From Escherichia coli (GTDB taxonomy: Bacteria; Pseudomonadota; Gammaproteobacteria; Enterobacterales; Enterobacteriaceae), in NCBI RefSeq assembly GCF_009931435.1, contig NZ_CP043414.1: a DNA stretch of 64,000 nt; one strand, given 5' to 3'. The translations under genes and the position numbers were made by a program. The first letter of the stretch is position 1. Every line of letters begins with the position of its first letter. The notes under the pieces were generated by a model. It worked only from the letters and a program-made list of their open reading frames with translations. It was not told where the DNA came from and did no database searches. Of the stretch, positions 44,298-62,278 are shown piece by piece.

Positions 44298-45317
44298 ATG
44301 AAAAGCATTTTAATTGAAAAACCGAATCAACTGGCAATTATCGAACGCGAAATACCCACCCCGTCAGCGGGTGAAGTTCGAGTAAAAGTGAAACTTGCCG
44401 GAATTTGTGGTTCAGATAGCCATATTTATCGTGGGCATAATCCTTTTGCGAAATATCCGCGCGTCATTGGACATGAATTCTTTGGCGTCATTGATGCAGT
44501 GGGTGAAGGCGTGGAAAGCGACAGAGTCGGTGAACGCGTTGCTGTCGATCCGGTGGTCAGCTGTGGGCATTGCTATCCGTGCTCTATAGGTAAGCCGAAC
44601 GTTTGTACGACACTGGCTGTATTAGGTGTGCACGCTGACGGTGGTTTCAGTGAATATGCCGTGGTGCCGGCAAAAAATGCGTGGAAAATTCCTGAAGCAG
44701 TGGCCGATCAATATGCGGTGATGATCGAACCTTTTACCATTGCGGCTAACGTTACCGGTCATGGTCAACCGACTGAAAATGATACCGTTCTGGTTTACGG
44801 TGCAGGTCCAATCGGCCTGACGATCGTTCAGGTATTAAAAGGCGTCTATAACGTTAAGAATGTGATTGTTGCCGATCGCATTGATGAACGACTGGAAAAA
44901 GCGAAAGAGAGCGGGGCAGACTGGGCGATTAATAACAGCCAGACACCGCTTGGCGAGATTTTCGCTGAAAAAGGCATAAAGCCGACATTAATTATCGATG
45001 CGGCTTGTCATCCTTCAATCCTGAAAGAAGCCGTAACGCTGGCTTCTCCAGCGGCACGTATTGTATTGATGGGCTTCTCCAGTGAACCGTCTGAAGTGAT
45101 TCAGCAAGGAATTACCGGAAAAGAACTCTCTATTTTCTCTTCACGCTTAAATGCAAATAAATTCCCGGTCGTTATCGACTGGTTAAGTAAAGGGTTAATT
45201 AAACCAGAAAAACTAATTACCCATACGTTTGATTTCCAGCATGTTGCTGATGCCATTAGTTTATTTGAACAGGATCAAAAGCATTGCTGCAAAGTCTTAC
45301 TCACTTTTTCTGAATAA
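44298..45317 (+). CDS. rspB: starvation-sensing protein RspB (Zn-dependent alcohol dehydrogenase family)
   Basis: ORF 44274..45317; start at MKSILIEKPN giving 339 aa; GHEFFG and CGxCxxC zinc motifs. Confidence 0.9.
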   Translation: MKSILIEKPNQLAIIEREIPTPSAGEVRVKVKLAGICGSDSHIYRGHNPFAKYPRVIGHEFFGVIDAVGEGVESDRVGERVAVDPVVSCGHCYPCSIGKPNVCTTLAVLGVHADGGFSEYAVVPAKNAWKIPEAVADQYAVMIEPFTIAANVTGHGQPTENDTVLVYGAGPIGLTIVQVLKGVYNVKNVIVADRIDERLEKAKESGADWAINNSQTPLGEIFAEKGIKPTLIIDAACHPSILKEAVTLASPAARIVLMGFSSEPSEVIQQGITGKELSIFSSRLNANKFPVVIDWLSKGLIKPEKLITHTFDFQHVADAISLFEQDQKHCCKVLLTFSE

Positions 45318-45374
45318 TACCAATAACGGCGAGTAAGTAGTACGCATCTTACCTCTTTTTTAGAGATAACCATT

Positions 45375-45467
45375 ATGACAATAGAAAAACACGAAAGAAG
45401 CACTAAGGATTTGGTGAAAGCAGCAGTATCGGGATGGCTGGGCACTGCGCTTGAATTTATGGATTTC
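45375..45467 (+). pseudogene. ydfJ: 5' fragment (31 codons) of ydfJ-like MFS metabolite:H+ symporter gene, truncated by prophage insertion
   Basis: ATG at 45375 gives MTIEKHERSTKDLVKAAVSGWLGTALEFMDF (the G-x-x-LEW/F-DF motif preceding TM1 of MHS transporters), then diverges and stops after 11 codons beside the integrase gene. Confidence 0.5.
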
Positions 45468-45504
45468 AAGAGTCATACGTGTCAACTATTTGATAAATAT
45501 TAAA

Positions 45505-46800
45505 TTAATTTTTCATTGCTTCGTTATGGGGCATGGTTGGGGCAAACTCGCTTAACTGTGTATTTAACAAAGCTACCTGTGCATTATTGTTTTCAGACAT
45601 CCATTTTCCGTATACCTGAAATACCATTTGCGCATCTGCATGGCCCATCTGGTTTGCTATAAATGCTGGGTTAGCACCAGCTGTCAGCGACCAGCAGGCA
45701 TAAGTATGTCTCGACTGATATGATTTTCGATGGCGGAGTCCGGCACGTTTTATCGCTGCGTCCCACATCTGCCTTATTGAGTCAACGGTAAAATGGTCAC
45801 CATAATTTTTTACTCTCGCTGACACTTCAGGTTGAAAAACAAAGGTGCATTTATGTTTTTCTGTTCTGCCATACTCTCTGAGGTGAACATCAATGATATG
45901 CTCTTTGCTCAGTCTCGTTAATGTCATCTGACTCCGGAGAGCGTCGATTGCTGGCTTAATAAGATGAATGACCCGATTGGTTCCCGCCTGTGTTTTTGGT
46001 ACCGTGAAACGGTCTTTTGCTAAATTTCTCCTGATCATCATTGTTCCATTTTTCAGATCTATGTCCTCCCATCCAAGTGCACACAGCTCACCAGGGCGAA
46101 CGCCAGTATAAACAGAAACACACCATAAATTTTTGGCTTGCTGATTTCTGCACGCATCGATAAGACGGATGAATTCCTCCCGCGAAAGAGGATCCGGAAT
46201 GGTTCTTGATTCCTTTAATGGCGAGATCCCCTTAAACGGGTTATCTGCCAGGTAACCGTTATCAACACCAAACTGGAACACGGCGTTAAGATTTGTCATG
46301 TAATTATTTACAGTTACAGCCGATCTCCCTGGTTGTGTAACAATATAGTTACTTTTGGGGATCTGGTATCCAGTCAGTAGCTCTTTACGAACCTCCAGTA
46401 ATTTTTCTTTATTAATCGATGAGGCAAGATTTTTTTCACCGATTATGCTCAGGATATTTTTGATGACGGCACGGTATGTGTTGAGTGATGTTTTTGCGAC
46501 TTCAGTTTCTTTCAGTGCCAGAAATTTTTCAGCCAGTTCTTTTATGGTTAAATCTTGTCGGGCCTCACCAAATTTTTCCAGATTGCGTGAGGAGGGAAAC
46601 TGTTTTGCATAGTCGAAAACACCAGTTTTTATTGCGTAACAAACAGAGGCGCGTAGCTCACCTGCAACGCGCCTGTTTTTTGCTGTGTCAGGAACCCCCA
46701 GGTTTTCCCTGACTCTTACGCCTTTATAAACAAACCAGATACGTAATTTCCCTCCATGGTTTTCCACGCCTGTCGGATATTTCATTTCAACTTCTCTCAT
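45505..46800 (-). CDS. int: tyrosine site-specific integrase
   Basis: 431-aa ORF (start possibly at second Met, 46785); C-terminal RHRKSYQSRHTYAC...VYGKW tyrosine recombinase motifs. Confidence 0.9.
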   Translation of the reverse strand: MREVEMKYPTGVENHGGKLRIWFVYKGVRVRENLGVPDTAKNRRVAGELRASVCYAIKTGVFDYAKQFPSSRNLEKFGEARQDLTIKELAEKFLALKETEVAKTSLNTYRAVIKNILSIIGEKNLASSINKEKLLEVRKELLTGYQIPKSNYIVTQPGRSAVTVNNYMTNLNAVFQFGVDNGYLADNPFKGISPLKESRTIPDPLSREEFIRLIDACRNQQAKNLWCVSVYTGVRPGELCALGWEDIDLKNGTMMIRRNLAKDRFTVPKTQAGTNRVIHLIKPAIDALRSQMTLTRLSKEHIIDVHLREYGRTEKHKCTFVFQPEVSARVKNYGDHFTVDSIRQMWDAAIKRAGLRHRKSYQSRHTYACWSLTAGANPAFIANQMGHADAQMVFQVYGKWMSENNNAQVALLNTQLSEFAPTMPHNEAMKN

Positions 46801-46819
46801 TAGTTAGTGTGGCTTTTAG

Positions 46820-47071
46820 TCAAGTAAGATGACGTCTTGGTCTTGCTGATGCCTGGCGCTCAATCCAGCGATCAATTTCTTCCAGGTTGTAAAAGCATGG
46901 ACTGTTATCCCATGGCATACCGTCATGAGCGACATGCTTATATTCCCTTCCTTCCATAAACGATTTTTCCCGGGCCTTTTTTAACGTACCTTTTTTTATT
47001 CCTTTCAGCGCAATTAACTGCTCTTCGGATACCCATTTGCCGGGAGAGACAATCATGATTACTTCGCTCAT
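46820..47071 (-). CDS. xis: lambda Xis-like excisionase
   Basis: 83-aa ORF directly upstream of int; shares the GREY core with lambda Xis. Confidence 0.65.
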   Translation of the reverse strand: MSEVIMIVSPGKWVSEEQLIALKGIKKGTLKKAREKSFMEGREYKHVAHDGMPWDNSPCFYNLEEIDRWIERQASARPRRHLT

Positions 47072-47143
47072 CGATTTCTTTATCTCTTACATCAGACGAG
47101 CGCCGGTTGCAGAATACCAGTCACAACCGGCGACAGTTGAACA

Positions 47144-49615
47144 TTAAGAATCAGCCTGACTCGGGATCAGTTTTTGCCAGATAGCTGAAACGCATTTTGC
47201 CTGGTAACGGGCGTCATCAAGTGCATTATGGCGCTCACCTTCGAATGGAATAGCCGTTCTGGCATCGAAGTCTATGGCTTTCCCCAGCTCAACGATTGTG
47301 CGTACATCGCGATCGTTGTAGTAACGCCACGGGCAGGGGATCCCCTGCCGTTCGTATGAACGGCGCAAAATCGTGTTGTCGAAGTTGGCTCCATTTCCCC
47401 AGACCTGAACAAAAAATTCACCGGAGTTTTCGTCGATAAATTCCCGCAATTGTAACAGTGCATCATCTAACGGGATTTCATCGGTCATAATGGCAGATTG
47501 CGCTTCGCGTGATTGTTTAAGCCACCATTTAATGGTGTCCCGATCAATGACTCCGCCAGCAGTTTCCAGATCGATAGTCTTACTAAATTCCGGTCCCATA
47601 TCTCCGGTTTGCGGATCGAAAAATATTGCACCTATTGAGATAATCGGGGCATCGGGATTTTTTCCCATGGTTTCAAGGTCGATCATCAGATGAATCCCCG
47701 CTCTGCTGGTGGATGTGAGATTATGATGACCGTTCGCCTTAATTAAGGGATCTGACGCCTCGCCAGTTTCACTATCGCTGGCATGATGCTGATTGCCGCC
47801 AGTGTTCTCCTTGTGCTGATGCGCAGTGCCTTCCATTTCCTCCGGATCATTTTCCTGAACTTCAGGCTGATTCTCTCCATCGAATATTTCCTGGTATGTT
47901 GCGTCACCCATCACCGCACCACAATCAGGGCAGTTGCCGCCACCGCTATGACCGCAGGCGGTGCAGATCTTTTCCGGTTCCTGTTGCACTACTGGTTCAG
48001 GTTGTTTCGTTTCTGGCTCGTTTTGTTGCGTATTTGGGCTGTTTTGTTCCGCTTTCTGGTCGTTCTGTTCCGTTTCTTGCTGGTTCTGGTTCACAGAATC
48101 GCGGGTCTGGATCCCCTTAACCCATTTCGGATCATTCGGGTCGCTAATCCCTTCAACAAATTCACCACGTGATACTGCAAGCAGTTCATCGGCGTCAGGC
48201 TGGCTGATATTGGCTGCCTGCATAATTTTGTTTACTTCGTCAGCGGTAACTTTTACTGACCCTGGTTGTGCGGTCGTGTCAGATGCACCAGTATTTTGTT
48301 GTGAACCTGAGTATGTACCGTTTTTGCGGGCGAAATATTCTTCTTTCGTGATTTCAGTAGCCCCAGCAGACAGCGCCTTATCCAGACCAGAAAGTTTGTT
48401 TGCGCGACCGTATTTTTCGCCATCCTTGTCGGTGAAGAGGAAGTAGAACGGCCCCTCACGTTCTACAGATGGTTCGACTTCCACTTTGCATTCGGTTTTT
48501 TCGTTGTCTGGAATTGCCGTTTCCACTGCATCAGTTTCTGGTACTGGCGACGAGAGAGTATCAGTTGCGCTCTGATTTGTTCCTTCATCTTCAAACACGC
48601 CCTTTGTAGTCAGGTATTCAGTAATGTATTTGTTCAGTGCCACAGGGTCTTTGTGAATGTCGATCGGACGTTCACGGACAAGGCCAAAAATAGTCTGGCG
48701 GTCGTAGCGAAGGGCATCAGGCTGTTTGCGCATTGATGCCGAGATACGCTTCCAGTCTTCGCGGTCGTTGTCGATAACTTCATTTTTTGCCCAGCGATGG
48801 ATGCTGCCGTCAATGTTTCCGGCATCTACATCACCAGGCCAGAGAGCGTAGGCCAGTTCGTCATCCAGTGTTTTCCATGTCTGCTTGTATTCGCGATGAA
48901 TGGCAGCAATGACCGGGTTGATTTTTCCTGTTGAATTTTCAGTGTGCTGTTGATTGGCTCTGGCGCGGGCGAGATCAACAACAGACGTGTATTTTCCGGC
49001 TTCCTTGCGTTCACCTTCGCGACGTTTTTTCCAGATGCGCATCTCTGCCTGAATTTCGGGCCATTTGGCACCAGGCTTACATTTATGCTTAACCCACCCG
49101 ATGGCATGCAGCTTAAGCTCCGGATACATAGCGTTAACTTCTGGCATTTTCATCAACGCTTCAACGATATGGCCGTCGAATGTTGCCATGTCTTCCTGCA
49201 ACAATTCCTGTGCGCTAATCACCATATCAACAGTGATGTTTTCACATGTGTGGAACTTAACCATGACAGCGTTCTGTACTTCAGGGGCTAGGTTGTCAAA
49301 AGTGACGTTCATCGGATCGGATTCAGTCTCGACCGGGACAAAGGAAGCAGACGCCTCATCCCAGCGGTTTTCCTGCATATATTCAGCATCCCAGGAATCG
49401 AGGGCAGGGCGGGGTATACCGGGTTTATCCTCGCAAACAAGAAATTTATAAGCGCAGTCCTGAGCAGCCGGATAATGTTCCAGGAATTGCCAGTGAAATT
49501 TTGCGCGGGCGCGACGTTCATCACCGGCTTCAATGGCAGTGGCTACAGCGACGGCACCTTCTTCCTTTATTGCCTGTTCGTCCGGAATGGCGGCGCAAAT
49601 AAAGACTTTACTCAT
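47144..49615 (-). CDS. prophage exonuclease with C-terminal DEDDh 3'-5' exonuclease domain
   Basis: 823-aa ORF; MIDLETMG (Exo I), WGNGANFD (Exo II), H-x4-D (Exo III); CTACG...CPDCG zinc knuckle; Q/E/N-rich linker. Confidence 0.8.
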   Translation of the reverse strand: MSKVFICAAIPDEQAIKEEGAVAVATAIEAGDERRARAKFHWQFLEHYPAAQDCAYKFLVCEDKPGIPRPALDSWDAEYMQENRWDEASASFVPVETESDPMNVTFDNLAPEVQNAVMVKFHTCENITVDMVISAQELLQEDMATFDGHIVEALMKMPEVNAMYPELKLHAIGWVKHKCKPGAKWPEIQAEMRIWKKRREGERKEAGKYTSVVDLARARANQQHTENSTGKINPVIAAIHREYKQTWKTLDDELAYALWPGDVDAGNIDGSIHRWAKNEVIDNDREDWKRISASMRKQPDALRYDRQTIFGLVRERPIDIHKDPVALNKYITEYLTTKGVFEDEGTNQSATDTLSSPVPETDAVETAIPDNEKTECKVEVEPSVEREGPFYFLFTDKDGEKYGRANKLSGLDKALSAGATEITKEEYFARKNGTYSGSQQNTGASDTTAQPGSVKVTADEVNKIMQAANISQPDADELLAVSRGEFVEGISDPNDPKWVKGIQTRDSVNQNQQETEQNDQKAEQNSPNTQQNEPETKQPEPVVQQEPEKICTACGHSGGGNCPDCGAVMGDATYQEIFDGENQPEVQENDPEEMEGTAHQHKENTGGNQHHASDSETGEASDPLIKANGHHNLTSTSRAGIHLMIDLETMGKNPDAPIISIGAIFFDPQTGDMGPEFSKTIDLETAGGVIDRDTIKWWLKQSREAQSAIMTDEIPLDDALLQLREFIDENSGEFFVQVWGNGANFDNTILRRSYERQGIPCPWRYYNDRDVRTIVELGKAIDFDARTAIPFEGERHNALDDARYQAKCVSAIWQKLIPSQADS

Positions 49616-49707
49616 TTTGTTTTACCTCATTACAGATTTAAGGGTGAACAAATCCCTGCCATTGCTGGCATATAAGAATGAAATCGGATGTTTATTACGG
49701 AACTGTT

Positions 49708-49899
49708 TTAAAGACCTGCCGGGATTTCGTTATTATCCTGGTGAATAACTTTATCGACCGGGTAACAGTTACCGGGAATTTTCTGTTCGGTTGCTGCAGT
49801 CACACACTCCTGCATTGTCCTGTGAACACTGACTGCAATATCAACTGGCTCTCCGGAAACAAGAAAAACTGTCAGAACAAGTGCAAATGCTGTATTCAT
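49708..49899 (-). CDS. ydfD: small lysis-inducing protein YdfD-like
   Basis: 63-aa ORF from MNTAFALVLTVFL (hydrophobic N-terminus); start overlaps dicB stop in ATGA. Confidence 0.6.
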   Translation of the reverse strand: MNTAFALVLTVFLVSGEPVDIAVSVHRTMQECVTAATEQKIPGNCYPVDKVIHQDNNEIPAGL

Positions 49900-50084
49900 T
49901 GCCAGCATCCTTTTTGTATCGGACGTAAACGGGCCAACATTGAAAGAATGCATATTTTATTTAATAGCTCCCGTTCGTGTTTTCTCTTGTTAATGGCATC
50001 TTCAGTAAATACAGGGTTACTGATAGTGACACCAATTTCAAAACAACCTTCAGACGTATTAACGTTTGGTAATAACGTTTCCAT
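49896..50084 (-). CDS. dicB: cell-division inhibitor DicB
   Basis: 62-aa ORF METLLPNVNTSEGCFEIGVTISNPVFTEDAINKRK..., recognised DicB. Confidence 0.85.
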   Translation of the reverse strand: METLLPNVNTSEGCFEIGVTISNPVFTEDAINKRKHERELLNKICILSMLARLRPIQKGCWQ

Positions 50085-50255
50085 TATCGCGTCCTCAACA
50101 ATGAATTTTGTGATGCGGTGCCTGGTGCTTCCAGGTGACGTTAACCAGTTAACAATTAACGCCGGATACAGAGAATCCACCCATAACACTGTTTTTGGTT
50201 TTAACTGTTCCGCGTGCGCTCAGCCGCATTCACCGCATCACAAAATTCACTTTAA

Positions 50256-50311
50256 AAAGGGCGGCAGAGCAGTCACGGAGTAAAACTGATACCGCCAAAC
50301 GTCACCAGAAA
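50256..50311 (-). ncRNA. dicF: DicF small regulatory RNA
   Basis: Minus strand reads TTTCTGGTGACGTTTGGCGGTATCAGTTTTACTCCGTGACTGCTCTGCCGCCC plus T-run, matching DicF as recalled; about 170 nt upstream of dicB. Confidence 0.75.
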
Positions 50312-50652
50312 ATTGATAACAGAGGGCGTTGCAGCGGGGTTGTCACTTAAGCGTATGGTCAACCTGACAACCCGGTGTCCTCAACGGGGGAAGGAATAAC
50401 CCCGCCATACTTACCGCCGCGCCATTTCGCGGATTGCCACAACCGGAAGCGCACGGTCGACGAAAATTTAACGACAGGCTATCTATGAACCAGCTACCTC
50501 GCCGTGCGCTTTCGCGTTATGGTCTGACTTTTCAGGGAAATATCCTTTCAGTAAACTGTCAGTGCCGGATGCTCACCCGTGTCCGGCGCAAGCACTCCAC
50601 CTTACCCGTGGAGAACTCCTTAATTACCAACCTTAGCTTCGTTGGTTAGCTA

Positions 50653-50871
50653 TTAACGCGGGTATGTAATCATTCTGGCAATGGTTAATGCCGCTGCTTT
50701 TTCCAGATTGGTGATATCCTGCTCCAGAGAGGACAGATTTTCAGCCTGCTTAGCCCTGACTTCATTAGCCCATTTCAGATCCTGCGCTGCATTAATTTTC
50801 TGGTGCATCCACTCATAAAGTTCATCATTGGTATAGTCTGGCGCGATGATGACGGGTTCTCGTTTCTGCAT
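50653..50871 (-). CDS. ydfC: YdfC-like prophage protein
   Basis: 72-aa ORF in the dicB operon position. Confidence 0.6.
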   Translation of the reverse strand: MQKREPVIIAPDYTNDELYEWMHQKINAAQDLKWANEVRAKQAENLSSLEQDITNLEKAAALTIARMITYPR

Positions 50872-50900
50872 ACTGATTCCTCGCGGTGCTGTTTCGCTTA

Positions 50901-51029
50901 TCAGCCATTAGATTTTGCCGAACTGGAAAGCGCCTGTTTAAATTCGTTGAAGCTGTGAGCTTCTTCGCCTTCGGCAAGGCCTTCGAAGTATTCTTCGTAA
51001 GCCTTTTCCATGATTGTGTCGAAATCCAT
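50901..51029 (-). CDS. ydfB: YdfB-like small acidic protein
   Basis: 42-codon ORF (MDFDTIMEKAYEEYFEGLAEG...) found by manual translation; below ORF-track cutoff. Confidence 0.5.
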   Translation of the reverse strand: MDFDTIMEKAYEEYFEGLAEGEEAHSFNEFKQALSSSAKSNG

Positions 51030-51030
51030 A

Positions 51031-51186
51031 TCACCCACCTGAATTTCTTTCCAGCCAGCGACGCGCTCCAGATTCGGTTTTAAACGTTTTGCTTTTGGTA
51101 TACGTCATTGCGGTGAACGTACCGTCCTGGTTGGGGAACACGCCACATACCAGAGATTCGCTGTTGCCAAGATTGATAGTATCCAT
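51031..51186 (-). CDS. ydfA: YdfA-like prophage protein
   Basis: 51-aa ORF from MDTINLGNSESLVCGVF; first gene downstream of the repressor. Confidence 0.6.
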   Translation of the reverse strand: MDTINLGNSESLVCGVFPNQDGTFTAMTYTKSKTFKTESGARRWLERNSGG

Positions 51187-51451
51187 GCTGACCTCATTTC
51201 CCCTTAACGCCGGGGTAGCGGAACAAAAACCTGCTGCATAGTTATTAAAGTTGTACCCTGCCGTCATGTTCTTACGCCTCGGGCTGGCTACTTAACCCCT
51301 GACCACTGCCTGGTAACTCGAAGTATTGCCCTGCATTCTGTGGAGCGGGGTGAGTTGGTATGAAAAGAAGGATACCCATAGGTATTTAAAAAGTAAATAC
51401 CCATGGGTGACTTTTTGCAGTGTCTTAACTGGTGACTAGTTGTTTGGTGAG

Positions 51452-51871
51452 CTATGATGCGTTTTGTGCTTTCTTTTTACGGATTTCTTCGTAGATCATA
51501 TTGTAATACTGTTTTTTCTCTTCAAGAGTTTTTAATAAGTTATCCGCTTCACTTTCTGGCAGTTCGTCTAAGAGATCTAAAAAAATACGTTGTCGTGGCG
51601 TTAGAACCCTTGTTTCATAACTGGAGGCTGTGTTCGTTGATGATGAAACGATACCATCCATCCATCCCCGGGGTAACCCAAAGGACTCTTCGATAATCTC
51701 CACCATATCATCAGCGATCCGTTTTTTTCCCTTTTTCCCCTCTGGGTACAACATTCTTGATACATAAGAAGGCTCGCGCCCGATCTTTCTGGCCACGTTA
51801 ACCGCTTTACCATCGCATTTCTCATCACGAATTTTGATGAGTTGCTGTCGTCTAAATTCATATTTGTCCAT
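51452..51871 (-). CDS. prophage repressor, DicA-like C-terminal domain with distinct N-terminal HTH
   Basis: 139-aa ORF; HTH-like VARKIGREPSYVSRM; C-terminal LDLLDELPESEADNLL resembles DicA; no SD before ATG. Confidence 0.7.
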   Translation of the reverse strand: MDKYEFRRQQLIKIRDEKCDGKAVNVARKIGREPSYVSRMLYPEGKKGKKRIADDMVEIIEESFGLPRGWMDGIVSSSTNTASSYETRVLTPRQRIFLDLLDELPESEADNLLKTLEEKKQYYNMIYEEIRKKKAQNAS

Positions 51872-51971
51872 AGGTAAATAATAGATGCGATTACTGCAAG
51901 GTAAACAACCTGTGGGTATTGACTTTTGTTTACCTGTAGGTATTCTTTGCTGTGTTTACTAAGGAGTAGCT
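51872..51971. promoter_or_regulatory. divergent promoter/operator region of the immunity switch
   Basis: AGGTAAATAA (51873), AGGTAAACAA (51899) and inverted TTGTTTACCT (51927) repeats around TTGACT; AAGGAG RBS for cro-like gene. Confidence 0.5.
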
Positions 51972-52253
51972 ATGGAAGAATTAAGAATATTTCTCAATTC
52001 TCTTTCGTCAGATGAACAGCGTATGTTTGCATGCGAGTGTGGTACCAGCATCGGTTATCTAAGAAAGGCATTGAGTAAAGGTCAAGTGTTAGGGGCATCG
52101 TTATGTGTCCTTATTGAGCGAGCCAGTAATGGTGAAGTTACACGTCAGCAACTAAGGCCTTTTGATTGGATGAATATTTGGCCCGAGCTGGAAGATACCA
52201 AAACGTTAACACAACCACTTTCTAGGAGCTTGATTCATGAAAATCAAGCATGA
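51972..52253 (+). CDS. Cro/YdaS-like HTH regulator
   Basis: 93-aa ORF divergent from repressor with AAGGAG RBS. Confidence 0.65.
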   Translation: MEELRIFLNSLSSDEQRMFACECGTSIGYLRKALSKGQVLGASLCVLIERASNGEVTRQQLRPFDWMNIWPELEDTKTLTQPLSRSLIHENQA

Positions 52254-52662
52254 ACACATCCGCATGGCGATGAATGCCTGGGCGCATCCGGACGGTGAAA
52301 AAGTTCCGGCAGCTGAAATAACCAGGGCTTATTTTGAACTGGGTATGACGTTCCCAGAACTGCATGACGACAGCCATCCGGAAGCCCTGGCTCGCAATAC
52401 CCAGAAAATTTTCCGCTGGGTAGAGAAAGACACCCCTGATGCAGTTGAAAAAATTCAGGCGTTGTTACCAGCGATCGAAAAGGCAATGCCACCTTTGCTG
52501 GTGGCCAGAATGCGCAGCCACAGTTCAGCTTATTTTCGGGAGCTGGTGGAGACGCGGGAGCGACTGGTGAGAGACGCTGATGATTTTGTCGCAGTGGCAA
52601 TCGCCGGTTTCAATCAGATGAACCGTGGTGGCCCGGCAGGAAATGCTGTGGCAGTGCATTGA
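52237..52662 (+). CDS. YdaT-like (CII-like) regulator
   Basis: 141-aa ORF starting MKIKHEHI as in Rac YdaT (recalled); 17-nt overlap with preceding gene. Confidence 0.55.
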   Translation: MKIKHEHIRMAMNAWAHPDGEKVPAAEITRAYFELGMTFPELHDDSHPEALARNTQKIFRWVEKDTPDAVEKIQALLPAIEKAMPPLLVARMRSHSSAYFRELVETRERLVRDADDFVAVAIAGFNQMNRGGPAGNAVAVH

Positions 52663-52733
52663 GTGATAATAGCCATATCGAATCGCTTCCGGCAACTCGT
52701 GAGTAAAAAGATTCGGTATCAGAAGAGGTGAGT

Positions 52734-53804
52734 ATGGCTAACGCCTGGCTCAGATTATGGCATGACATGCCAAATGACCCTAAGTGGCGAACAATTGCCA
52801 GGGTGTCAGGGCAGCCAATTGCAACAGTGATGGCAGTGTATATCCACCTCCTGGTGAGCGCGTCACGAAATGTCACGCGAGGTCACATTGATGTCACGAC
52901 AGAAGATTTGGCAAGTGCGCTCGACGTGACAGAAGAGGTAATTGATTCAATTTTGCAGACGATGCAGGGGCGGGTACTTGATGGTGATTTAATCACTGGA
53001 TGGGAAAAACGCCAGGTGCTTAAAGAGGACAACGGCAATATTTCGCAAACCGCAAAATCTCCTGCAGAGCGCAAGAGGGCGCAGCGAGAGAGGGAAAGAA
53101 AGCGGGAACAAAATGGCGATTGTCACGGCGCATCACGAAATGTCACGCACATGTCACGACGAGTCACGACAGATAAAGATACAGATAAAGATACAGATCA
53201 AGAAGATCAAAACACTATGGTCCATGGCGTAAAAAACGCTACGAACCAGGCAGGGGATGTTCAGACCGTCAATCCTGGTCAGCCAGCAGGCACGACACCG
53301 GAAGCCGATTCAGCGTATGCGCTGAAACCCGATTCGGGCGCTGTGCAGCAGGTGATGACCCAAAGGCCGGAACAATCACACCAACTGCAGCAGCCTGAAG
53401 CCGATTCCGCCATTCAGCGGGAAGCCGATCGGGTAGTCCCGGAAAACACCGGGCTGTCTGTGGGACGAGTGGATTATCCGGATGTGTTCGAACAGGTCTG
53501 GCGGGAGTACCCGTTGCGTGCCGGAGCAAACCCGAAGAAATCCGCTTTCAGTGCCTGGAAGGCCAGATTACGCGAGGGGGTGCCACCAGAGGCCATGCTG
53601 GATGGCGTGAGGCGTTACGCAAGATACTTGGCGGCTACCGGGAAAACGGGAACGGAATTTGTTCAGCGAGCGACGACGTTTTTTGGACCGGACCGGAATT
53701 TTGAGAACCCCTGGTTGCTCCCGGTAAGCGGCACGAACAACCAGCGTTGTGTGAATCATATTTCTGAACCGGATAACGAAATTCCGCCGGGCTTCAGGGG
53801 GTAA
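52734..53804 (+). CDS. replication-module protein (YdaU-like, putative initiator)
   Basis: ORF 52728..53804, ATG at 52734 after AGAGGTGAG; N-terminal WLRLWHDMPNDPKW; contains iteron clusters and an acidic DKDTDKDTD linker. Confidence 0.6.
   Translation: MANAWLRLWHDMPNDPKWRTIARVSGQPIATVMAVYIHLLVSASRNVTRGHIDVTTEDLASALDVTEEVIDSILQTMQGRVLDGDLITGWEKRQVLKEDNGNISQTAKSPAERKRAQRERERKREQNGDCHGASRNVTHMSRRVTTDKDTDKDTDQEDQNTMVHGVKNATNQAGDVQTVNPGQPAGTTPEADSAYALKPDSGAVQQVMTQRPEQSHQLQQPEADSAIQREADRVVPENTGLSVGRVDYPDVFEQVWREYPLRAGANPKKSAFSAWKARLREGVPPEAMLDGVRRYARYLAATGKTGTEFVQRATTFFGPDRNFENPWLLPVSGTNNQRCVNHISEPDNEIPPGFRG
52861..53169 (+). repeat. iteron-like repeats (putative prophage origin) inside the replication gene
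   Basis: GTCACG-type motifs at about 52862, 52872, 52882, 52893 (inverted at 52925) and 53122, 53132, 53142, 53153, 53163; TCACGAAATGTCACGC occurs twice. Confidence 0.55.
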
Positions 53805-53844
53805 GTGTTAATTTCTGGTCATGAGGTAATTTTCAGGAGGGCTT

Positions 53845-54270
53845 GTGGCAAAAGTTTTTACACAAGAAGAGCGGGAAAAAATTAAAGGGCAGGTTGTTGA
53901 ACTCGTACGCCAGAGTGGGCGCGAGACGTTACGACAACTGGAAACTAAAACTGGGGCAACAAGATATCTGATGAGCGTTCTGGCCAGAGAGCTGGTTGCC
54001 AGTGGCGATGTATACAACTCTGGTTACGGGTTATTCCCGTCTGAACAGGAGCGTAAGGACTGGCAAAATGCCCGTAAAAAGCTCTCAAGGGCAAAGCTGA
54101 AGAAACCATCTGCGGTTGATCCGGACCTTATCTGGTCATTACCTGACGGAGAAATACGTCGCTACGATAGTTGTCTAAACATAATCTGTCGCGAGTGCCG
54201 GAAGAGCGAAGTTATGCAGCGCATTATGGCATTTTATCAGGGAAATGTTAGGTATTTTAGACGTTACTAG
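53845..54270 (+). CDS. hypothetical basic protein (141 aa), replication-module associated
   Basis: GTG start 7 nt after CAGGAGG; GC similar to prophage backbone; no family recognised. Confidence 0.55.
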   Translation: MAKVFTQEEREKIKGQVVELVRQSGRETLRQLETKTGATRYLMSVLARELVASGDVYNSGYGLFPSEQERKDWQNARKKLSRAKLKKPSAVDPDLIWSLPDGEIRRYDSCLNIICRECRKSEVMQRIMAFYQGNVRYFRRY

Positions 54271-54497
54271 ATTAAAGGGCATTAGTTCAGATATGCATTG
54301 ACATTTTCATGGCACAAGGTAGAGCTAGCGTGGTTGTTCGCTTTGTGCCAAGAGTGGTCATTGATAATATTTTGGTGGGTTACATCTGTCAATGTTTCAG
54401 GTGATATGATATACAAATAGCCAGACTTAGACTGGCATGCTGTTTATTTTTATATTATGGGTGTGCCACATGGATTTAAAACTTATTGAGATATGAC

Positions 54498-55523
54498 ATG
54501 GATACTTTTCATAATATTTTGCTTGAGCACATAGACAGCCTTTTAAAAGAGAGACTTGATTTATCTGGTGACGCTGATATCGAAAAAGAAATTAATAACC
54601 TAATTCCCAAAATAGTCATTGTCGTTAAAAAATCTCTTATTGGCTCGGCCAATGCAATGCTTAGAGAACATCGTTCTCTTTGTGATGAATTTGTTGAGAG
54701 AAATATTTCAAGATGGGCAGAGGCTTTTGATTTGCTCGAAACACTTATAGTGATATGCACGGAGTCCGGTGAAGAGTTCAATCGTTCTTATAGACCACAA
54801 GCTGCCTCTGAAGAGGATGTGGTTTTTGATTTAGTCGTTCGGCATCACGCAAGAGCTTGCCACATCGCCAACGAAATTTTGTGTCTCTTAAAGAATGGAT
54901 TTGCAGATGCTGCCCAAGCGAGATGGCGAGCACTTCATGAGGTAGCAGCCACAGCTATGTTTATAGCAAAGCATGGAAAAGAGTGTGCTGAGCGCTTTTA
55001 CTACCATGAAGTGGTTGATTCATATACTGGAATGTTGGAACACAAAAAGTACGAGCACCGGTTAGAAGCAAAAGGTCCAACTATTGAAGAAATAGCTGAG
55101 TGCAAAGTTCAATTTGATCTATTAATAAAAAAATACGGCAAAAAATATGCAGATAATTATGGGTGGGCATCTTATATTTTCCCTAACCATAATAAAGTGG
55201 GGTTTGGAGCTATTGAGAAAGATGTTCAGTTAGAACACATGCGCCCTTATTATAAGTGGGCGAGTCAGAATGTACACACCGGTTCCAAGGCAATGAGAAA
55301 TAGGCTTGGTCTCTGTGAAACTGGTGATGATATATTATTGGTCGGGCAAAGTGATTCAGGAATGGCTGATCCAGCCCATGCTACTGCTATTAGTTTGATG
55401 CAGATTACTGTGACACTTTTATTCTTAAAACCAACCATTGATCATGCCGTCATTTCAAAAATAATACAGGATTATTCTGATGAGATTGGAAATGTATTTC
55501 TTAAAATTGATAAGGGTAATTAA
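54498..55523 (+). CDS. orphan AT-rich hypothetical protein (341 aa from ATG; 345 aa from TTG at 54486), function unknown
   Basis: Uninterrupted 1-kb ORF; visibly AT-rich versus flanks (about 38-40% GC by eye); no TM segments, no P-loop; no recognised homologue. Confidence 0.7.
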   Translation: MDTFHNILLEHIDSLLKERLDLSGDADIEKEINNLIPKIVIVVKKSLIGSANAMLREHRSLCDEFVERNISRWAEAFDLLETLIVICTESGEEFNRSYRPQAASEEDVVFDLVVRHHARACHIANEILCLLKNGFADAAQARWRALHEVAATAMFIAKHGKECAERFYYHEVVDSYTGMLEHKKYEHRLEAKGPTIEEIAECKVQFDLLIKKYGKKYADNYGWASYIFPNHNKVGFGAIEKDVQLEHMRPYYKWASQNVHTGSKAMRNRLGLCETGDDILLVGQSDSGMADPAHATAISLMQITVTLLFLKPTIDHAVISKIIQDYSDEIGNVFLKIDKGN

Positions 55524-55905
55524 AAATTGGAAAAGTGATAGTATATTCTTGTTTTTTTACTGGTAATTAAATGTTTTTAAAGTTACTAGTTCACACCTAT
55601 CGAACGTCCGGTCTTCGCCCAAAGCGGACTAGAAGGTTAGCTTGCGTCGGATTTGGCGTATTTAAAGAATCGCTGGTGGTTACTGGTTGTTGTGTTCCAT
55701 TTCTACAGAACAAAATCACAGAAACTATACCCAATAGTTGTATCTCATCAATGATGAGAGAGCCTCATATTTATCAGGACTGGTGTACGTCCAATACAGG
55801 AGGTTGTCGTGCTGGTTCTCAAATGTGCGCTGGCTATTGCAGCTGTAATGGCAATTTATTGTCTTGCTGTTGTTCTTATGGATCGCCTTTCTGATTGATT
55901 TTATA

Positions 55906-56109
55906 TTGGCCAGGTGACGGGAGTTAAGTAGAATGGCTGCGGGTGCTTGAGGCTATCTGTCTCAGGCATGAACACCAAAGGCAGATAGAGAAAAGCCCCA
56001 GTTAACATTACGCGTCCTGCAAGACGCTTAACATTAATCTGAGGCTCAATCTATGAACGGCAAATCTAGGTTAGCCTCTTACGTGCCGAAAGGCAAGGAG
56101 AAGCAGGCT
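55906..56109 (+). promoter_or_regulatory. hok promoter and 5' leader
   Basis: TTGGCC-17 bp-TAGAAT; leader GCGGGTGCTTGAGG (55939-55952) complementary to 3' CCTCAATGCACCCGC (56315-56329), consistent with hok fold-back pairing. Confidence 0.5.
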
Positions 56110-56265
56110 ATGAAGCAGCAAAAGGCGATGTTAATCGCCCTGATCGTCATCTGTTTAACCGTCATAGTGACGGCACTGGTAACGAGGAAAGACCTCTGCG
56201 AGGTACGAATCCGAACCGGCCAGACGGAGGTCGCTGTCTTCACAGTCTACGAACCTGAGGAGTAA
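56110..56265 (+). CDS. hokD: Hok/Gef-family type I toxin
   Basis: 51-aa MKQQKAMLIALIVICLTVIVTALVTRKDLCEVRIRTGQTEVAVFTVYEPEE, near-identical to K-12 HokD/RelF as recalled. Confidence 0.9.
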   Translation: MKQQKAMLIALIVICLTVIVTALVTRKDLCEVRIRTGQTEVAVFTVYEPEE

Positions 56266-56333
56266 GAGACTTGGCGAGGGAGAAATCCCTCGCCACCTCT
56301 GATGTGTCAGGCATCCTCAATGCACCCGCACTT

Positions 56334-56358
56334 AACCCGCTTCGGCGGGTTTATTTTA
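56334..56358 (+). terminator. intrinsic terminator of hok mRNA
   Basis: AACCCGC-TTCG-GCGGGTT hairpin followed by TATTTTAT. Confidence 0.7.
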
Positions 56359-56723
56359 TCTGTAAATATTTTTATAAAAATAATGCCCACACACAGCATA
56401 AAACAAAAAGTATCACAGATAAAAAAGGAGCGTAATGTGCAGATTTGTTGTTTTCCATATTTACTCACTTTAACATAATCAATATTGATATGGTTGTTGT
56501 TTCGGTGGTTTCAAACGAGATGTTATGGTGATCTGGTAAAATTGCATAACATTAAAATTTAATTTATCTAATCGCTTTTAATAATAAGCGTTGTGTTTAT
56601 CCCAATAATCTGTTGTTTGACTTTTATTCCATTAATGTAGGGGCTTTACACTGGAACCAGTTTATTTATACTTTATACGCCAGCCTGAACAACTGGCACC
56701 TGCTGCGCCAGCAGAGACAACCG

Positions 56724-57002
56724 ATGGCGCACGATACCAAATTACACAATTCTGATGATTCTGCCGTCTTTGCCAGCAGGTGCGGACGGCGTTTTCATGC
56801 ATTCAAATCGGACTGGTTCCAGCATCCACCATGCACTGAAGAGCAGGCTGAATGGATAATTCAGTGTTACCGCAGGCGCGGATACGAGGTTAAAAAAGCC
56901 CTTAGCCTCGACTACCGTCACTGGATAATCTCAGTCAGATTGCCTTACTCCGAACGCCCACCGCGTCCGTCCCACACATTCCAGCAACGCATCTGGAGGT
57001 AA
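56724..57002 (+). CDS. rem: Rem-like prophage protein (start uncertain; ORF opens at 56613)
   Basis: ORF upstream of ydfU in the K-12 Qin rem position; start chosen at first ATG. Confidence 0.45.
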   Translation: MAHDTKLHNSDDSAVFASRCGRRFHAFKSDWFQHPPCTEEQAEWIIQCYRRRGYEVKKALSLDYRHWIISVRLPYSERPPRPSHTFQQRIWR

Positions 57003-57003
57003 C

Positions 57004-58053
57004 GTGCGGGTATTACTTCGACCTGTTCTGGTACCGGAACTCGGGCTGGTGATCGTTAAGCCGGGCCGTGAATCCATGCCGGTATTCCACAATACCCGGT
57101 TACTGGTGGAGCCGGAACCGAAAAGCATGCGTAATCTGCCGTCCGGGGTCGTTCCTGCCGTTGGCCAGCCGCTGGCGGAAGACAAAACATTGCTGCCGTT
57201 TTTTAGTAACGAACGGGTGATTCGTGCTGCTGGCGGCGTTGGCTCATTGTCTGACTGGCTATTACGTCATGTTACATCCTGCCAGTGGCCTAATGGCGAT
57301 TACCATCACACTGAAACAGTCATTCACCGTTATGGTACCGGCGCAATGGTGTTGTGTTGGCACTGCGACAACCAACTGCGTGACCAGACATCGGAATCAC
57401 TGGAGCTGCTTGCTCAACAAAATCTGACAGCATGGGTGATTGACGTCATCCGTCACGCAATAAGCGGTACGCAGGAGCGGGAATTATCTTTGGCTGAATT
57501 ATCCTGGTGGGCGGTCTGCAATCAGGTGGTGGATGCACTACCTGAGGCTGTATCGCGTCGTTCGCTGGGATTACCAGCGGAAAAAATCTGCTCGGTGTAC
57601 CGCGAAAGCGACATCGTACCGGGAGAGCAGACCGCCACCAGCATATTGAAACAACGCACAAAAAATCTTGCACCGTTGCCTTACGCCCACCAGCAACAAA
57701 AACTACCACAGGAAAAGACGGTGGTAAGCATCACCGTTGATCCAGAGTCTCCGGAATCTTTCATGAAGCTGCCTAAACGTCGCCGCTGGGTTAAGGAGAA
57801 ATACACACGTTGGGTTAAGACACAGCCGTGTGCTTGCTGCGGTATGCCAGCCGACGATCCGCATCATCTGATTGGTCACGGGCAGGGCGGAATGGGAACA
57901 AAAGCACATGATCTCTTTGTGTTGCCTTTGTGCAGAAAGCATCACAACGAGCTGCATACGGATACAGTGGCATTTGAAGAGAAGTATGGCTCCCAACTGG
58001 AGCTGATATTTCGTTTTATCGATCGCGCGCTGGCAATTGGCGTACTGGCGTAA
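57004..58053 (+). CDS. ydfU: YdfU-like protein (DUF968) with C-terminal HNH-like Cys/His motif
   Basis: 349-aa ORF, GTG start; CACCG...DDPHHLIGHG...CRKHHNELH. Confidence 0.8.
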   Translation: MRVLLRPVLVPELGLVIVKPGRESMPVFHNTRLLVEPEPKSMRNLPSGVVPAVGQPLAEDKTLLPFFSNERVIRAAGGVGSLSDWLLRHVTSCQWPNGDYHHTETVIHRYGTGAMVLCWHCDNQLRDQTSESLELLAQQNLTAWVIDVIRHAISGTQERELSLAELSWWAVCNQVVDALPEAVSRRSLGLPAEKICSVYRESDIVPGEQTATSILKQRTKNLAPLPYAHQQQKLPQEKTVVSITVDPESPESFMKLPKRRRWVKEKYTRWVKTQPCACCGMPADDPHHLIGHGQGGMGTKAHDLFVLPLCRKHHNELHTDTVAFEEKYGSQLELIFRFIDRALAIGVLA

Positions 58054-58066
58054 GTGGAGAACGAGC

Positions 58067-58819
58067 ATGAACCTTGAAGCCTTACCAAAATATTACTCCC
58101 CAAAATCTCCAAAATTGAGCGATGACGCTCCAGCGACAGGCACCGGTTGTTTAACAATTACGGATGTAATGGCAGCGCAGGGGATGGTGCAGTCGAAAGC
58201 ACCACTTGGGTTGGCCTTATTTCTGGCAAAAGTTGGTGTTCAGGACCCTCAGTTTGCGATTGAAGGCCTGCTAAATTACGCGATGGCACTGGATAACCCG
58301 ACATTGAACAAATTGAGTGAAGAAATCCGGTTACAGATTATTCCTTACCTCGTGAGTTTTGCCTTTGCTGATTACTCCAGGTCTGCGGCAAGTAAGGCTC
58401 GCTGTGAGCATTGTTCAGGTACGGGATTTTATAATGTATTGCGCGAAGTGGTGAAACACTACAGACGCGGGGAATCTGTAATCAAGGAAGAATGGGTGAA
58501 GGAACTATGTCAGCATTGCCATGGTAAGGGCGAAGCCAGCACAGCGTGCAGAGGGTGTAAGGGTAAAGGGATTGTTCTGGATGAAAAAAGAACCCGGTTT
58601 CATGGCGTACCGGTATATAAGATTTGTGGGCGTTGTAATGGAAACCGGTTTAGTCGTTTACCGACCACGCTGGCACGACGTCATGTCCAGAAGCTGGTAC
58701 CAGACCTGACCGATTATCAGTGGTATAAGGGGTATGCGGACGTCATTGGTAAACTGGTAACAAAGTGCTGGCAGGAAGAAGCATACGCGGAAGCGCAATT
58801 GAGGAAGGTGACGAGATAA
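58067..58819 (+). CDS. quuQ: late-gene antiterminator Q-like protein
   Basis: ORF 58037..58819; start at MNLEALPKYY (250 aa); four CxxC zinc-finger repeats. Confidence 0.85.
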   Translation: MNLEALPKYYSPKSPKLSDDAPATGTGCLTITDVMAAQGMVQSKAPLGLALFLAKVGVQDPQFAIEGLLNYAMALDNPTLNKLSEEIRLQIIPYLVSFAFADYSRSAASKARCEHCSGTGFYNVLREVVKHYRRGESVIKEEWVKELCQHCHGKGEASTACRGCKGKGIVLDEKRTRFHGVPVYKICGRCNGNRFSRLPTTLARRHVQKLVPDLTDYQWYKGYADVIGKLVTKCWQEEAYAEAQLRKVTR

Positions 58820-58850
58820 ATGATTTTTGCTGAAGATGGCGACATGATGT

Positions 58851-58879
58851 TTGCATTTTTCAAAAAATATGGATAAAAT
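58851..58879 (+). promoter_or_regulatory. candidate late promoter (pR'-like)
   Basis: TTGCAT-17 bp-TAAAAT, about 30 bp after Q stop and 50 bp before a strong terminator. Confidence 0.35.
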
Positions 58880-58926
58880 TTTTTCAACGATGGGCTTTGT
58901 ATACCCGACGTTAAGAAAAAGTAGAA

Positions 58927-58955
58927 AACCCGCTGATGAGCGGGTTTTGTGCTTT
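58927..58955 (+). terminator. intrinsic terminator after Q (tR'-like)
   Basis: AACCCGCT-GATG-AGCGGGTT stem followed by TTGTGCTTT. Confidence 0.7.
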
Positions 58956-59240
58956 AAATGGGGCAATGGTAATGTTGAATCTCATCCCGGGACTCATGTC
59001 TGTTAACTTATTATTTAGCTGGTGACTTGGTTATTTGCCTGATGTTTAAAATGTTTTCTTCCAGTACAATGCCCCTAAACACAATGAGTCTGCTTATTAT
59101 ATTATTAGCAGAGCTATTACGGCCAAAGTACAGCATAAGCTTTTAAAGCCAATCAACCAGTCATCAAGACAGACGGGGTTATTCATAAAAACTCTCCATG
59201 TGTGATCCGATGGGGCCTGAAATTAAAGCTTTAATATAGC

Positions 59241-59453
59241 TCATGAAAGGTAAACATTGGCAGCTGAAGGGCCACGCAGACCATTTATCCGGCAAAATTC
59301 CACGCGTAATCCGGTGGTAATTTCTTCTGCATCGCGGAGATTGAGCGCTGAAACATGAAGCTGGACATCGATACGACCATCGGATGGGGTGATAAGACCC
59401 TTGCCGCTTTTGCCGTCAAAGGTTTTGACAATTCCTGTCATTTTACGGGACAA
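59241..59453 (-). CDS. cspF: cold-shock-domain protein CspF-like
   Basis: 70-aa CSD ORF divergent from cspB. Confidence 0.85.
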
Positions 59454-59753
59454 AAAAATTCCTTAATACTGATAACTTGGCGCACTATACACACGTTCCT
59501 GAAGAAAGCTATAGTTTTTTGATGGGGTTGAAGATGGCTGGATGTCTAAAATAAACATTGCTTCATATGTTCAACTATGCGTTAATGATTGCGTCGGTTT
59601 GAAGAACAGACGATATACGAAGTAGTTTACTAAAGCAGTTCTCATTTCAGGTGTTATTCACTTATTCCTTCTTTGAGTCTCTCCAATTAAGTACGAAGTC
59701 GTTTCTGTTATGCAAACCATTTATGCCGAAAGGCTCAAGTTAAGGAATGTAGA

Positions 59754-59969
59754 ATGTCAAATAAAATGACTGGTTTAGTAAAATGGTTTAACGCTGATAA
59801 AGGTTTCGGCTTTATTTCTCCTGTTGATGGTAGTAAAGATGTGTTTGTGCATTTTTCTGCGATTCAGAATGATAATTATCGAACCTTATTTGAAGGTCAA
59901 AAGGTTACCTTCTCTATAGAGAGTGGTGCTAAAGGTCCTGCAGCAGCAAATGTCATCATTACTGATTAA
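59754..59969 (+). CDS. cspB: cold-shock protein CspB
   Basis: 71-aa ORF with RNP1-like KGFGFI motif; about 300-nt upstream leader typical of cold-shock genes. Confidence 0.9.
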
Positions 59970-60250
59970 AATTCATCGCTCGTCTGTATACGATAACGAA
60001 GAAGGCTGATGCCTGAGTAGAGATACGGACAGAGTAGTGAATATTGGATTTCTTTAATAAAAATTAAGGAGGTCCAATACATGAAACAATGGCCAGCATA
60101 TTTGGCAAAATCTTAATCAGGAAAAGTATGCTAACCATTGTGGTGAAGTGCAGGTTTGCTGCATGAATAGTTTTACAGCAGAAGCTAACTGCTGGCATGG
60201 CAAAACAAAGTGCGTAAGTGGATGACTCCCACAAAAAGCACCACAATCTC

Positions 60251-60275
60251 AAACCCGCTCAGGCGGGTTTTTTAT
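60251..60275 (+). terminator. intrinsic terminator
   Basis: AAACCCGC-TCAG-GCGGGTTT hairpin followed by T4. Confidence 0.7.
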
Positions 60276-60332
60276 TATCTGCTTTAAATATATTATTAAA
60301 ATATAAAAAATACTTGTTACTAATAAAATCAA

Positions 60333-60503
60333 TCAGGCTACAGCTTTAAGATTTGTCTGGAATACTTTGTTGCAATGAGGGCAGATCAAAAGGGCACCTT
60401 TTTGTACTCTTGAAAAACTGTGTTCTGACTCTTGGGTGCAGTTTGGGCAGGAACATTTAACGAGATAATTACGGCGTGATTTTGAGTCTTTACGTTCTGA
60501 CAT
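60333..60503 (-). CDS. ydfK: YdfK/YnaE-like zinc-ribbon protein
   Basis: ORF 60333..60554; start at MSERKDSKSRRNY (56 aa) with AGGAAA RBS; CSCPNC...CPHC. Confidence 0.6.
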   Translation of the reverse strand: MSERKDSKSRRNYLVKCSCPNCTQESEHSFSRVQKGALLICPHCNKVFQTNLKAVA

Positions 60504-60722
60504 AGGCTTTTCCTGTATAAATGGCCGTATACAGTACACTAAATATGAAAACATTTCTCGTATTATTATTTTATATATGACTTTCTTTCAAAATAATTAC
60601 TCACATTTTTAATGTGTATGTTTCTTTAGCGCCGTTGAGAACAGCGTGTGCTGTCAAAACTACCCCGTAGACTCCGATCTTTTCAAACATATTGCACCAT
60701 CCGTGTACATCGGGGTGAGGAT

Positions 60723-60938
60723 ATGAAATCAATGGATAAGTTAACAACAGGTGTTGCCTATGGCACATCGGCGGGTAATGCTGGTTTCTGGGCATTGCAG
60801 TTACTCGATAAAGTAACTCCGTCACAGTGGGCTGCAATCGGTGTGCTGGGTAGCCTGGTTTTTGGCCTGCTGACGTATCTGACAAATCTTTATTTCAAGA
60901 TTAAAGAAGACAGGCGTAAGGCTGCGAGAGGAGAGTAA
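60723..60938 (+). CDS. essQ: phage 21 S-type pinholin (dual-start)
   Basis: ORF 60648..60938; start at MKSMDKL (Met1/Met4) after GGGGTGAGG RBS; 71 aa resembling S21 as recalled. Confidence 0.85.
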
Positions 60939-60942
60939 TCCA

Positions 60943-61250
60943 ATGACTCAAGACTATGAACTGGTCGTGAAAGGAGTCCGTAATTTTGAGAATAAAGTTA
61001 CGGTAACTGTAGCCTTACAGGACAAAGAACGCTTTGACGGTGAAATTTTTGACCTGGATGTCGCCATGGACCGTGTTGAAGGAGCTGCGCTGGAGTTTTA
61101 TGAGGCAGCAGCCAGAAGGAGCGTCCGGCAAGTCTTCCTGGAAGTAGCAGAAAAATTGTCAGAAAAAGTTGAGTCTTATCTGCAGCATCAGTACTCCTTT
61201 AAGATTGAAAATCCTGCCAATAAGCACGAGCGTCCTCATCATAAATATAT

Positions 61251-61254: not shown

Positions 61255-62278
<1,024 letters not shown>

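Follow-up and report, generated by a model that had tools for sequence, protein, structure and literature searches.

An intact dicF-dicB-ydfD cassette in a Qin-type Escherichia coli prophage that appears to be controlled by a repressor other than DicA

Judged by its sequence, the interval 49708-50311 of the E. coli DNA analysed here (64,000 nt of contig NZ_CP043414.1, referred to below as the window) is the known dicF-dicB-ydfD cassette of a Qin-type E. coli prophage, intact and ordinary in its make-up. The sole departure from the textbook cassette is that a repressor other than the K-12 DicA appears to be in control. Very probably, the cassette acts by the mechanism set out below and represents the distal portion of the PL-type operon ydfA-ydfB-ydfC-dicF-dicB-ydfD(-exo), the early-left operon of a Qin-type lambdoid prophage located beside rspB. 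The dicF-dicB-ydfD locus is already known, since the cassette is widespread in genomes and phages and the dicBF locus of strain APEC O78 has been described in the literature (PMC5069750). The added value is therefore modest and consists of the description of a chimeric alternative repressor and its operators.

The cassette and its leftward operon

Read directly on the minus strand, the interval 49708-50311 extends exactly from the ydfD stop codon to the DicF 5' end, and Rfam, Pfam/NCBIfam and alignment with K-12 place DicF, DicB and YdfD in their canonical order and spacing. The original prediction had recognized DicF on the minus strand and proposed an Rfam covariance search as a check. In a scan of all Rfam families, DicF (53 nt; 50259-50311, minus strand) was recovered as a match to RF00039 at 50310-50259 on the minus strand, with a score of 76.7 bits against a gathering score of 48 (E=3.6e-15); the match covers model positions 1-52 of 52 and every modelled pair is standard. 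Base-by-base alignment with the annotated Qin locus of K-12 MG1655 showed no mismatch between the 53-nt K-12 dicF and 50311-50259 (53 of 53 positions identical), and this identity includes the 5' region that pairs with xylR and the 3' region that pairs with ftsZ and pykA. By comparison, DicF of phage Tritos differs at one base. DicF also carries its own 3' hairpin, as had been predicted; a stem-loop of 7+5 bp at approximately 50296-50260 (-15.9 kcal/mol) is directly followed by a run of TTTTT at 50258-50254. Because the fold energy of DicF taken alone is unexceptional (z=-1.38), weight was placed on the covariance-model match and on the identity with K-12.

In K-12, the 3' part of DicF has been shown to pair with the ribosome-binding region of ftsZ and also with pykA, while the 5' part pairs with xylR (PMC5069750). 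When the whole length of DicF was hybridized in silico with the ftsZ leader (RNAduplex), an energy of -38.5 kcal/mol was obtained, and 48 of 500 shuffled DicF sequences performed as well. Since the duplex energy does not rise above that of the shuffles, the assignment of target pairing rests on the identity with K-12 DicF and on the conservation of the ftsZ leader, which 5389 of 5424 E. coli genomes share at an identity of 99% or more.

The spacer between ydfC and dicF (50312-50652, minus strand) is 341 nt long, non-coding and 97.1% identical to K-12, and corresponds to the DicF precursor region. In K-12, the 53-nt DicF is cut by RNase E from a 190-nt RNase III intermediate (PMC10448788); by analogy, the RNase III 5' end of this 190-nt precursor would be located near 50448. 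The 190-nt precursor is separated from its K-12 counterpart by a single substitution plus an indel of 1 nt, with no change in the predicted fold downstream. In strains of this type, as in the records of APEC O78 and STEC308, RefSeq/PGAP leaves dicF without annotation and instead calls an antisense ORF in the precursor, encoding a 54-aa 'hypothetical protein' (WP_001700701.1; approximately 50485-50649, plus strand, within the ydfC-dicF spacer). This ORF, overlapping with the structured precursor of DicF, is probably spurious.

DicF is separated from dicB by a spacer of 174 nt (50085-50258, minus strand; 98.3% identical to K-12), in agreement with the approximately 170 nt that had been predicted, and a GAGGA Shine-Dalgarno sequence precedes the dicB ATG. 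The dicB gene (49896-50084, minus strand) encodes a 62-aa division inhibitor, which is MinC-dependent in K-12; its product matches Pfam PF05358 (127.4 bits, cut-off 27) as well as the NCBIfam model NF049927, CellDivInhibDicB (132.7 bits, cut-off 100), the latter over residues 1-62 of 62. This DicB differs from the allele found in K-12 and Tritos at seven amino acid residues (K2E, Q36H, V47L, L55P, M56I, P57Q and A61W), four of which fall within the last eight residues, and the N-terminal 13-14 residues are as in K-12 except for K2E. Taking into consideration that the last eight residues of DicB are dispensable and that the K2A, K2G and K2R variants are active (Yang et al. 2016, PMC4967827), the DicB allele found here is likely to be active.

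The overlap of the dicB stop with the ydfD start, another element of the original prediction, is seen at 49899-49896, where ATGA contains both the dicB TGA and the ydfD ATG. The ydfD gene (49708-49899, minus strand) encodes a 63-aa lysis protein with a DUF1482 domain (Pfam PF07358; 88 bits, cut-off 25). Its product is identical to K-12 YdfD at 59 of 63 residues (94%, with four amino acids differing), and Cys32, Cys45 and both termini are conserved. The three products had been described as toxic when derepressed in K-12. This agrees with the literature on DicF and DicB, whose production from derepressed dicBp is toxic and makes cells filamentous (PMC10448788, PMC5069750), and also on YdfD expressed alone, which lyses cells and binds IspG (PMC8835842). 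A nuance concerns YdfD in the presence of DicB; lysis by YdfD is reported to be prevented by co-expressed DicB or SulA (PMC8835842, with reference to Masuda 2016). Because the native operon co-expresses DicB, which prevents lysis by YdfD, its derepression should lead to filamentation and not to lysis. Filamentation was seen by Ragunathan et al. when Rem was produced.

Upstream of DicF, the operon continues with ydfC (50653-50871, minus strand; 72 aa; phrog_1744), ydfB (50901-51029, minus strand; 42 aa; phrog_2061) and ydfA (51031-51186, minus strand; 51 aa; Pfam DUF1391, 96.6 bits), which are 97.3%, 96.1% and 91% identical to K-12 at the nucleotide level, respectively. An upstream, in-frame ATG would lengthen the ydfA ORF to 51267 and its product to 78 aa. 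Since this longer form is annotated in phage Tritos and phrog_751 covers residues 10-77 of the 78-aa form, the true start of ydfA is uncertain. Downstream of the cassette lies an intact gene (47144-49615, minus strand) for an 823-aa exonuclease, which matches phrog_2082 over its full length and contains a Pfam Rv2179c-like 3'-5' exonuclease domain. This gene is the counterpart of the K-12 ydfE pseudogene, and the same gene is found in phage Tritos. It is followed by xis (46820-47071), located between the exonuclease gene and int. The exonuclease, xis and integrase genes are all intact within 45214-49615 (minus strand); in K-12, IS2 disrupts ydfE and intQ, both of which are pseudogenes.

Prophage context and distribution

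The cassette region (49650-50700) matches E. coli APEC O78 at 100% identity, and positions 45000-64000 of the window match STEC308 and relatives at 99.8%. In the APEC O78 and STEC308 records, the prophage adjoins rspB, which is the Qin site. APEC O78 has been included among the strains with a Qin-like prophage, with ydfA, ydfB and ydfC upstream of dicF/dicB and ydfD downstream (Balasubramanian et al. 2016, PMC5069750). Of 5426 complete E. coli genomes, 4744 contain DNA of the cassette (median 2 copies, maximum 10), and the greater part of the cassette is present in 3803 genomes. This DNA also occurs in 58 phage records, among them that of the isolated phage Tritos. The junction between the immunity module described below and ydfA was found in 821 of 5426 complete E. 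coli genomes (approximately 15%), and the dicA-ydfA junction of K-12 was found in a similar number, 848 of 5426; the junction seen here is a common allele, by no means a rare one. A segment of 247 bp that is 98% identical to the region of DicF and the DicF-dicB spacer was also found in the record of Aeromonas phage AP1 (MT713136.1, 249906-250152). This segment is located near the end of a 254-kb jumbo-phage record and has the appearance of contamination with E. coli DNA or of an artefact of assembly.

Several other elements of a Qin-type prophage are present in the window. A hokD/sok type I toxin-antitoxin locus was found at 55941-56265 on the plus strand, with 110 bits for sok in Rfam and a HokD that is 98% identical to that of K-12; its neighbours in K-12 Qin, relB, relE, rem, ydfV and flxA, are missing here. 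The interval of these missing genes contains a gene encoding a 345-aa protein (DUF5677/phrog_27456; 54486-55523, plus strand). In addition, two matches to the cspA-type 5'-UTR thermoregulator, at 59593-59985 and 62496-62881 on the plus strand (158.8 and 113.8 bits, respectively), mark the positions of cspB and cspI, two cold-shock genes in the Qin-type late region of the prophage.

It is very unlikely that the cassette is left over from a decayed prophage, inert and neither expressed nor active any more. Signs of decay can be found in related prophages, as the terminase and tail-fibre genes are truncated in STEC308, the closest match without IS2, and the replication region of APEC O78 is interrupted by an IS2 that the window does not have; moreover, strong repression of the operon is expected. 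However, all ORFs of the operon, DicF, the repressor and the operators are intact, and the cassette has been kept at an identity of at least 95% in thousands of genomes and in viable phages. In K-12, where the prophage is more decayed, the cassette nevertheless shows stationary-phase expression and is spontaneously switched on (PMC10448788).

The immunity module and its operators

The original prediction had placed the cassette downstream of an apparently functional repressor. A repressor gene is present upstream of the operon and is intact (51452-51871, minus strand; 139 aa), but its product is not DicA. The identification as DicA was rejected with a score of 23.9 bits against the cut-off of 101 for the NCBIfam DicA model, NF007257, to which residues 86-136 alone could be aligned. 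The protein matches phrog_5736, annotated as 'transcriptional regulator', end to end and at full length (E=4e-70). The repressor shares 65% identity with the cI protein of lambdoid phage mEp043 over residues 1-86, 39.5% with the 139-aa CI of phage Tritos over residues 21-139, where the likeness is concentrated in the C-terminal 50 residues, and 33% with DicA over the last 46 amino acids (BLASTP). No Pfam match was found for the repressor, including no Pfam HTH and no Peptidase_S24 domain. The AlphaFold (AF2) model (pLDDT 77) has four helices in its N-terminal domain, which a disordered linker connects to two helices at the C-terminus. Its best fold match in the PDB, although weak (E=2.4e-3), is Rep of Salmonella phage SPC32H, a protein that is controlled by an antirepressor; further fold matches included many XRE-type HTH proteins with E values weaker than 2.4e-3. 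A search of the PDB with the repressor sequence yielded insignificant winged-helix matches only (E of 0.076 or higher). On these comparisons, the repressor is an intact chimera that joins an mEp043 cI-like, putatively DNA-binding N-terminal domain to a short DicA/Tritos CI-like C-terminus, and it can be classified as a repressor of the short, non-cleavable type, like DicA (PMC10448788).

Divergent from the repressor gene is a gene encoding a 93-aa cro-like regulator (51972-52253, plus strand; phrog_35), which matches Pfam YdaS weakly and below the cut-off, followed by a cII/YdaT-like gene (52237-52662, plus strand; CII-like phrog_163), which matches Pfam YdaT above the cut-off. These families correspond to the YdaS/YdaT 'toxin' families of the Rac prophage. 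Because the cro-like and cII-like genes match YdaS and YdaT, the rightward half of the immunity module can be assigned, by sequence likeness, to the Rac/CP-933P YdaS-YdaT type; the N-terminal domain of the repressor and the operators are of the mEp043 type.

The palindrome ATACC-N4-GGTAT was found at three sites at OR and at two sites upstream of ydfA. The OR-like control region, between the divergent repressor and cro-like genes (51891-51943), contains operators at 51891-51904, 51906-51919 and 51930-51943, and the OL-like control region (51369-51410, minus strand) contains two palindromic operators, at 51397-51410 and 51372-51385, that are 25 bp apart. A motif search allowing up to two mismatches located four of five matches in the 64-kb window within these two intergenic control regions, with approximately 1.5 matches expected window-wide, and the best matches in the control regions form pairs 24-25 bp apart. 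Phage mEp043 shows the same motif both at OL, where two copies with a spacing of 25 bp precede N, and at OR, where cro and cI flank three copies; none of 200 shuffles attained this count. Furthermore, the control regions of the window and of mEp043 align operator for operator and in register, while their flanks diverge. The motif was not found in Tritos, in which the N-terminal domain of CI differs. The fact that DNA-binding domain and operator co-vary among the window, mEp043 and Tritos provides good indirect evidence that the 139-aa protein is the immunity repressor and would control ydfA-dicF-dicB-ydfD through the OL-like site.

A candidate PL-type promoter, with the hexamers TTTACT (51397-51392) and TATCCT (51374-51369) separated by 17 nt, would overlap both OL operators; read by eye, the two hexamers match the consensus at 8 of 12 positions. 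An automatic promoter and terminator scan of 49500-52400 found nothing above chance and did not report this candidate. The scan also proposed a terminator hairpin of 15 bp, which was rejected; the repeats and the alignment with mEp043 indicate that it represents the two tandem OL operators, mislabelled.

Control of the cassette as in K-12, where DicA represses, DicC acts as Cro and Rem as antirepressor, is considered extremely unlikely. The body of the operon is 95.6% identical to K-12 Qin over the stretch from 51224 to 48849 (BLAST), i.e., into the exonuclease gene, the end of the repressor resembles DicA, and DicA could be supplied by another prophage in the same cell, given the DicA-type junctions in 848 genomes. 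However, homology with K-12 starts only at 51224, approximately 38 nt upstream of the ydfA ATG, and the K-12 dicBp promoter, its operators and dicA are therefore not present here. Moreover, searches of the window did not find homologues of DicC, of Rem (the DicA antirepressor) or of RelBE, the repressor falls far below the cut-off for DicA, and its N-terminal domain and operators are of the mEp043 type.

In the interval between hokD and ydfU, no Rem homologue was found. A 92-aa ORF in the window (56724-57002), looked at in this search for a Rem-like antirepressor, matched PHROGs of unknown function only, and its DNA is also present in K-12. Since the repressor has no S24 autocleavage domain, induction probably occurs through an antirepressor or through spontaneous or stochastic switching, and not through RecA-dependent cleavage.

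Proposed regulation and comparison with known systems

The proposed mechanism draws on PMC10448788, PMC5069750, PMC8835842, PMC6832061 and PMC4967827, and on K-12 sequences that are identical or near-identical to those in the window. In a lysogen, the 139-aa repressor would bind the paired ATACC-N4-GGTAT operators. These operators would overlap the leftward promoter upstream of ydfA as well as the divergent promoters of the repressor and cro-like genes, and the operon would be kept nearly silent. Once repression is lifted, a single polycistronic RNA would be made, as in K-12, where the operon has one promoter, upstream of ydfA. The alternative that DicF is an independent gene, transcribed separately from a promoter within the ydfC-dicF spacer instead of being processed from the operon RNA, is just as improbable as K-12-type control; it would fit the terminator hairpin of DicF, the approximately 340 nt of non-coding spacer and the extra promoter upstream of dicB suggested by an older study (as cited in PMC10448788), but the scan detected no sigma-70-like site on the minus strand of 50312-50652, and primer extension and RNase mutants in K-12 show that DicF is processed from the dicBp transcript, with no internal promoter found experimentally (PMC10448788).

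Under the operon reading, RNase III and then RNase E would release the 53-nt DicF from the polycistronic RNA, with the 3' end set by the terminator hairpin of DicF itself, as established for K-12. Together with Hfq, DicF would pair with the ftsZ mRNA, and also with those of xylR, pykA and manX, and would block translation, as established for the identical K-12 RNA. RNA that reads through the hairpin would give rise to DicB and then, by translational coupling at the ATGA overlap, to YdfD. DicB would act with MinC to block Z-ring function and would also block ManYZ-dependent phage entry. YdfD would bind IspG and lyse dividing cells, with the division block imposed by DicB masking this lysis. The net phenotype of derepression would be filamentation together with growth arrest. 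Nothing in the sequence contradicts this reading of the operon and its repressor.

It may tentatively be proposed that this allele has been rewired, from control by DicA, DicC and Rem to control by a chimeric, non-cleavable repressor that reads mEp043-type operators, although this possibility and the consequences that follow are regarded as rather unlikely. If true, the host-toxic cassette would answer to a different antirepressor than Rem. Superinfecting mEp043-like phages could then silence the cassette through their cI, or induce it through their Cro or antirepressor, and E. coli lineages would differ in the sensory inputs that drive one and the same division and anti-phage module. Few prophage-encoded host modulators have been studied as closely as DicF, DicB and YdfD, and the cassette described here matters little beyond its correct annotation. 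Nevertheless, the regulation of dicBF as known from K-12 (DicA, DicC and Rem) is not transferable to the approximately 15% of genomes (821 of 5426) that carry the alternative immunity module.

The closest known system is the dicBF operon of K-12 Qin (ydfABC-dicF-dicB-ydfDE, repressed by DicA), which shares with the window the site beside rspB, the gene order and the spacers. At the protein level, YdfA, YdfB, YdfC, DicB and YdfD are 89-95% identical between the two, and DicF is 100% identical. The immunity functions differ; DicA, DicC and Rem are absent from the window, which carries the 139-aa chimeric repressor and other operators instead. Phage Tritos (OV696610) shows the same early-left layout, with int, xis, the 823-aa exo, ydfD, dicB, DicF, ydfC/B/A, a 139-aa CI, cro, a cII-like gene and the replisome organiser. 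The Tritos cassette, in which DicF is annotated, is 97.3% identical to that of the window, and related isolated lambdoid phages include PhiR42_1, mEp460 and vB_EcoS-813R8. The C-terminal domain of Tritos CI is highly similar to that of the repressor found here, whereas the N-terminal DNA-binding domain is different; in addition, the Tritos DicB is the K-12 allele, unlike that of the window.

The cI protein of mEp043, by comparison, has 228 aa and a long C-terminal part that is typical of cleavable repressors, whereas the repressor in the window has a short, DicA-like helical end. The PL operon of mEp043 starts with N and carries no dicBF cassette. Finally, the kil gene in the PL operon of lambda likewise represents a division inhibitor encoded in an early-left operon under CI/OL control (PMC3961180; the analogy is made in PMC10448788). 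Lambda Kil has no sequence relationship to DicB or DicF, and the cassette in the window provides two inhibitors, an RNA and a protein, that act on FtsZ by different routes.
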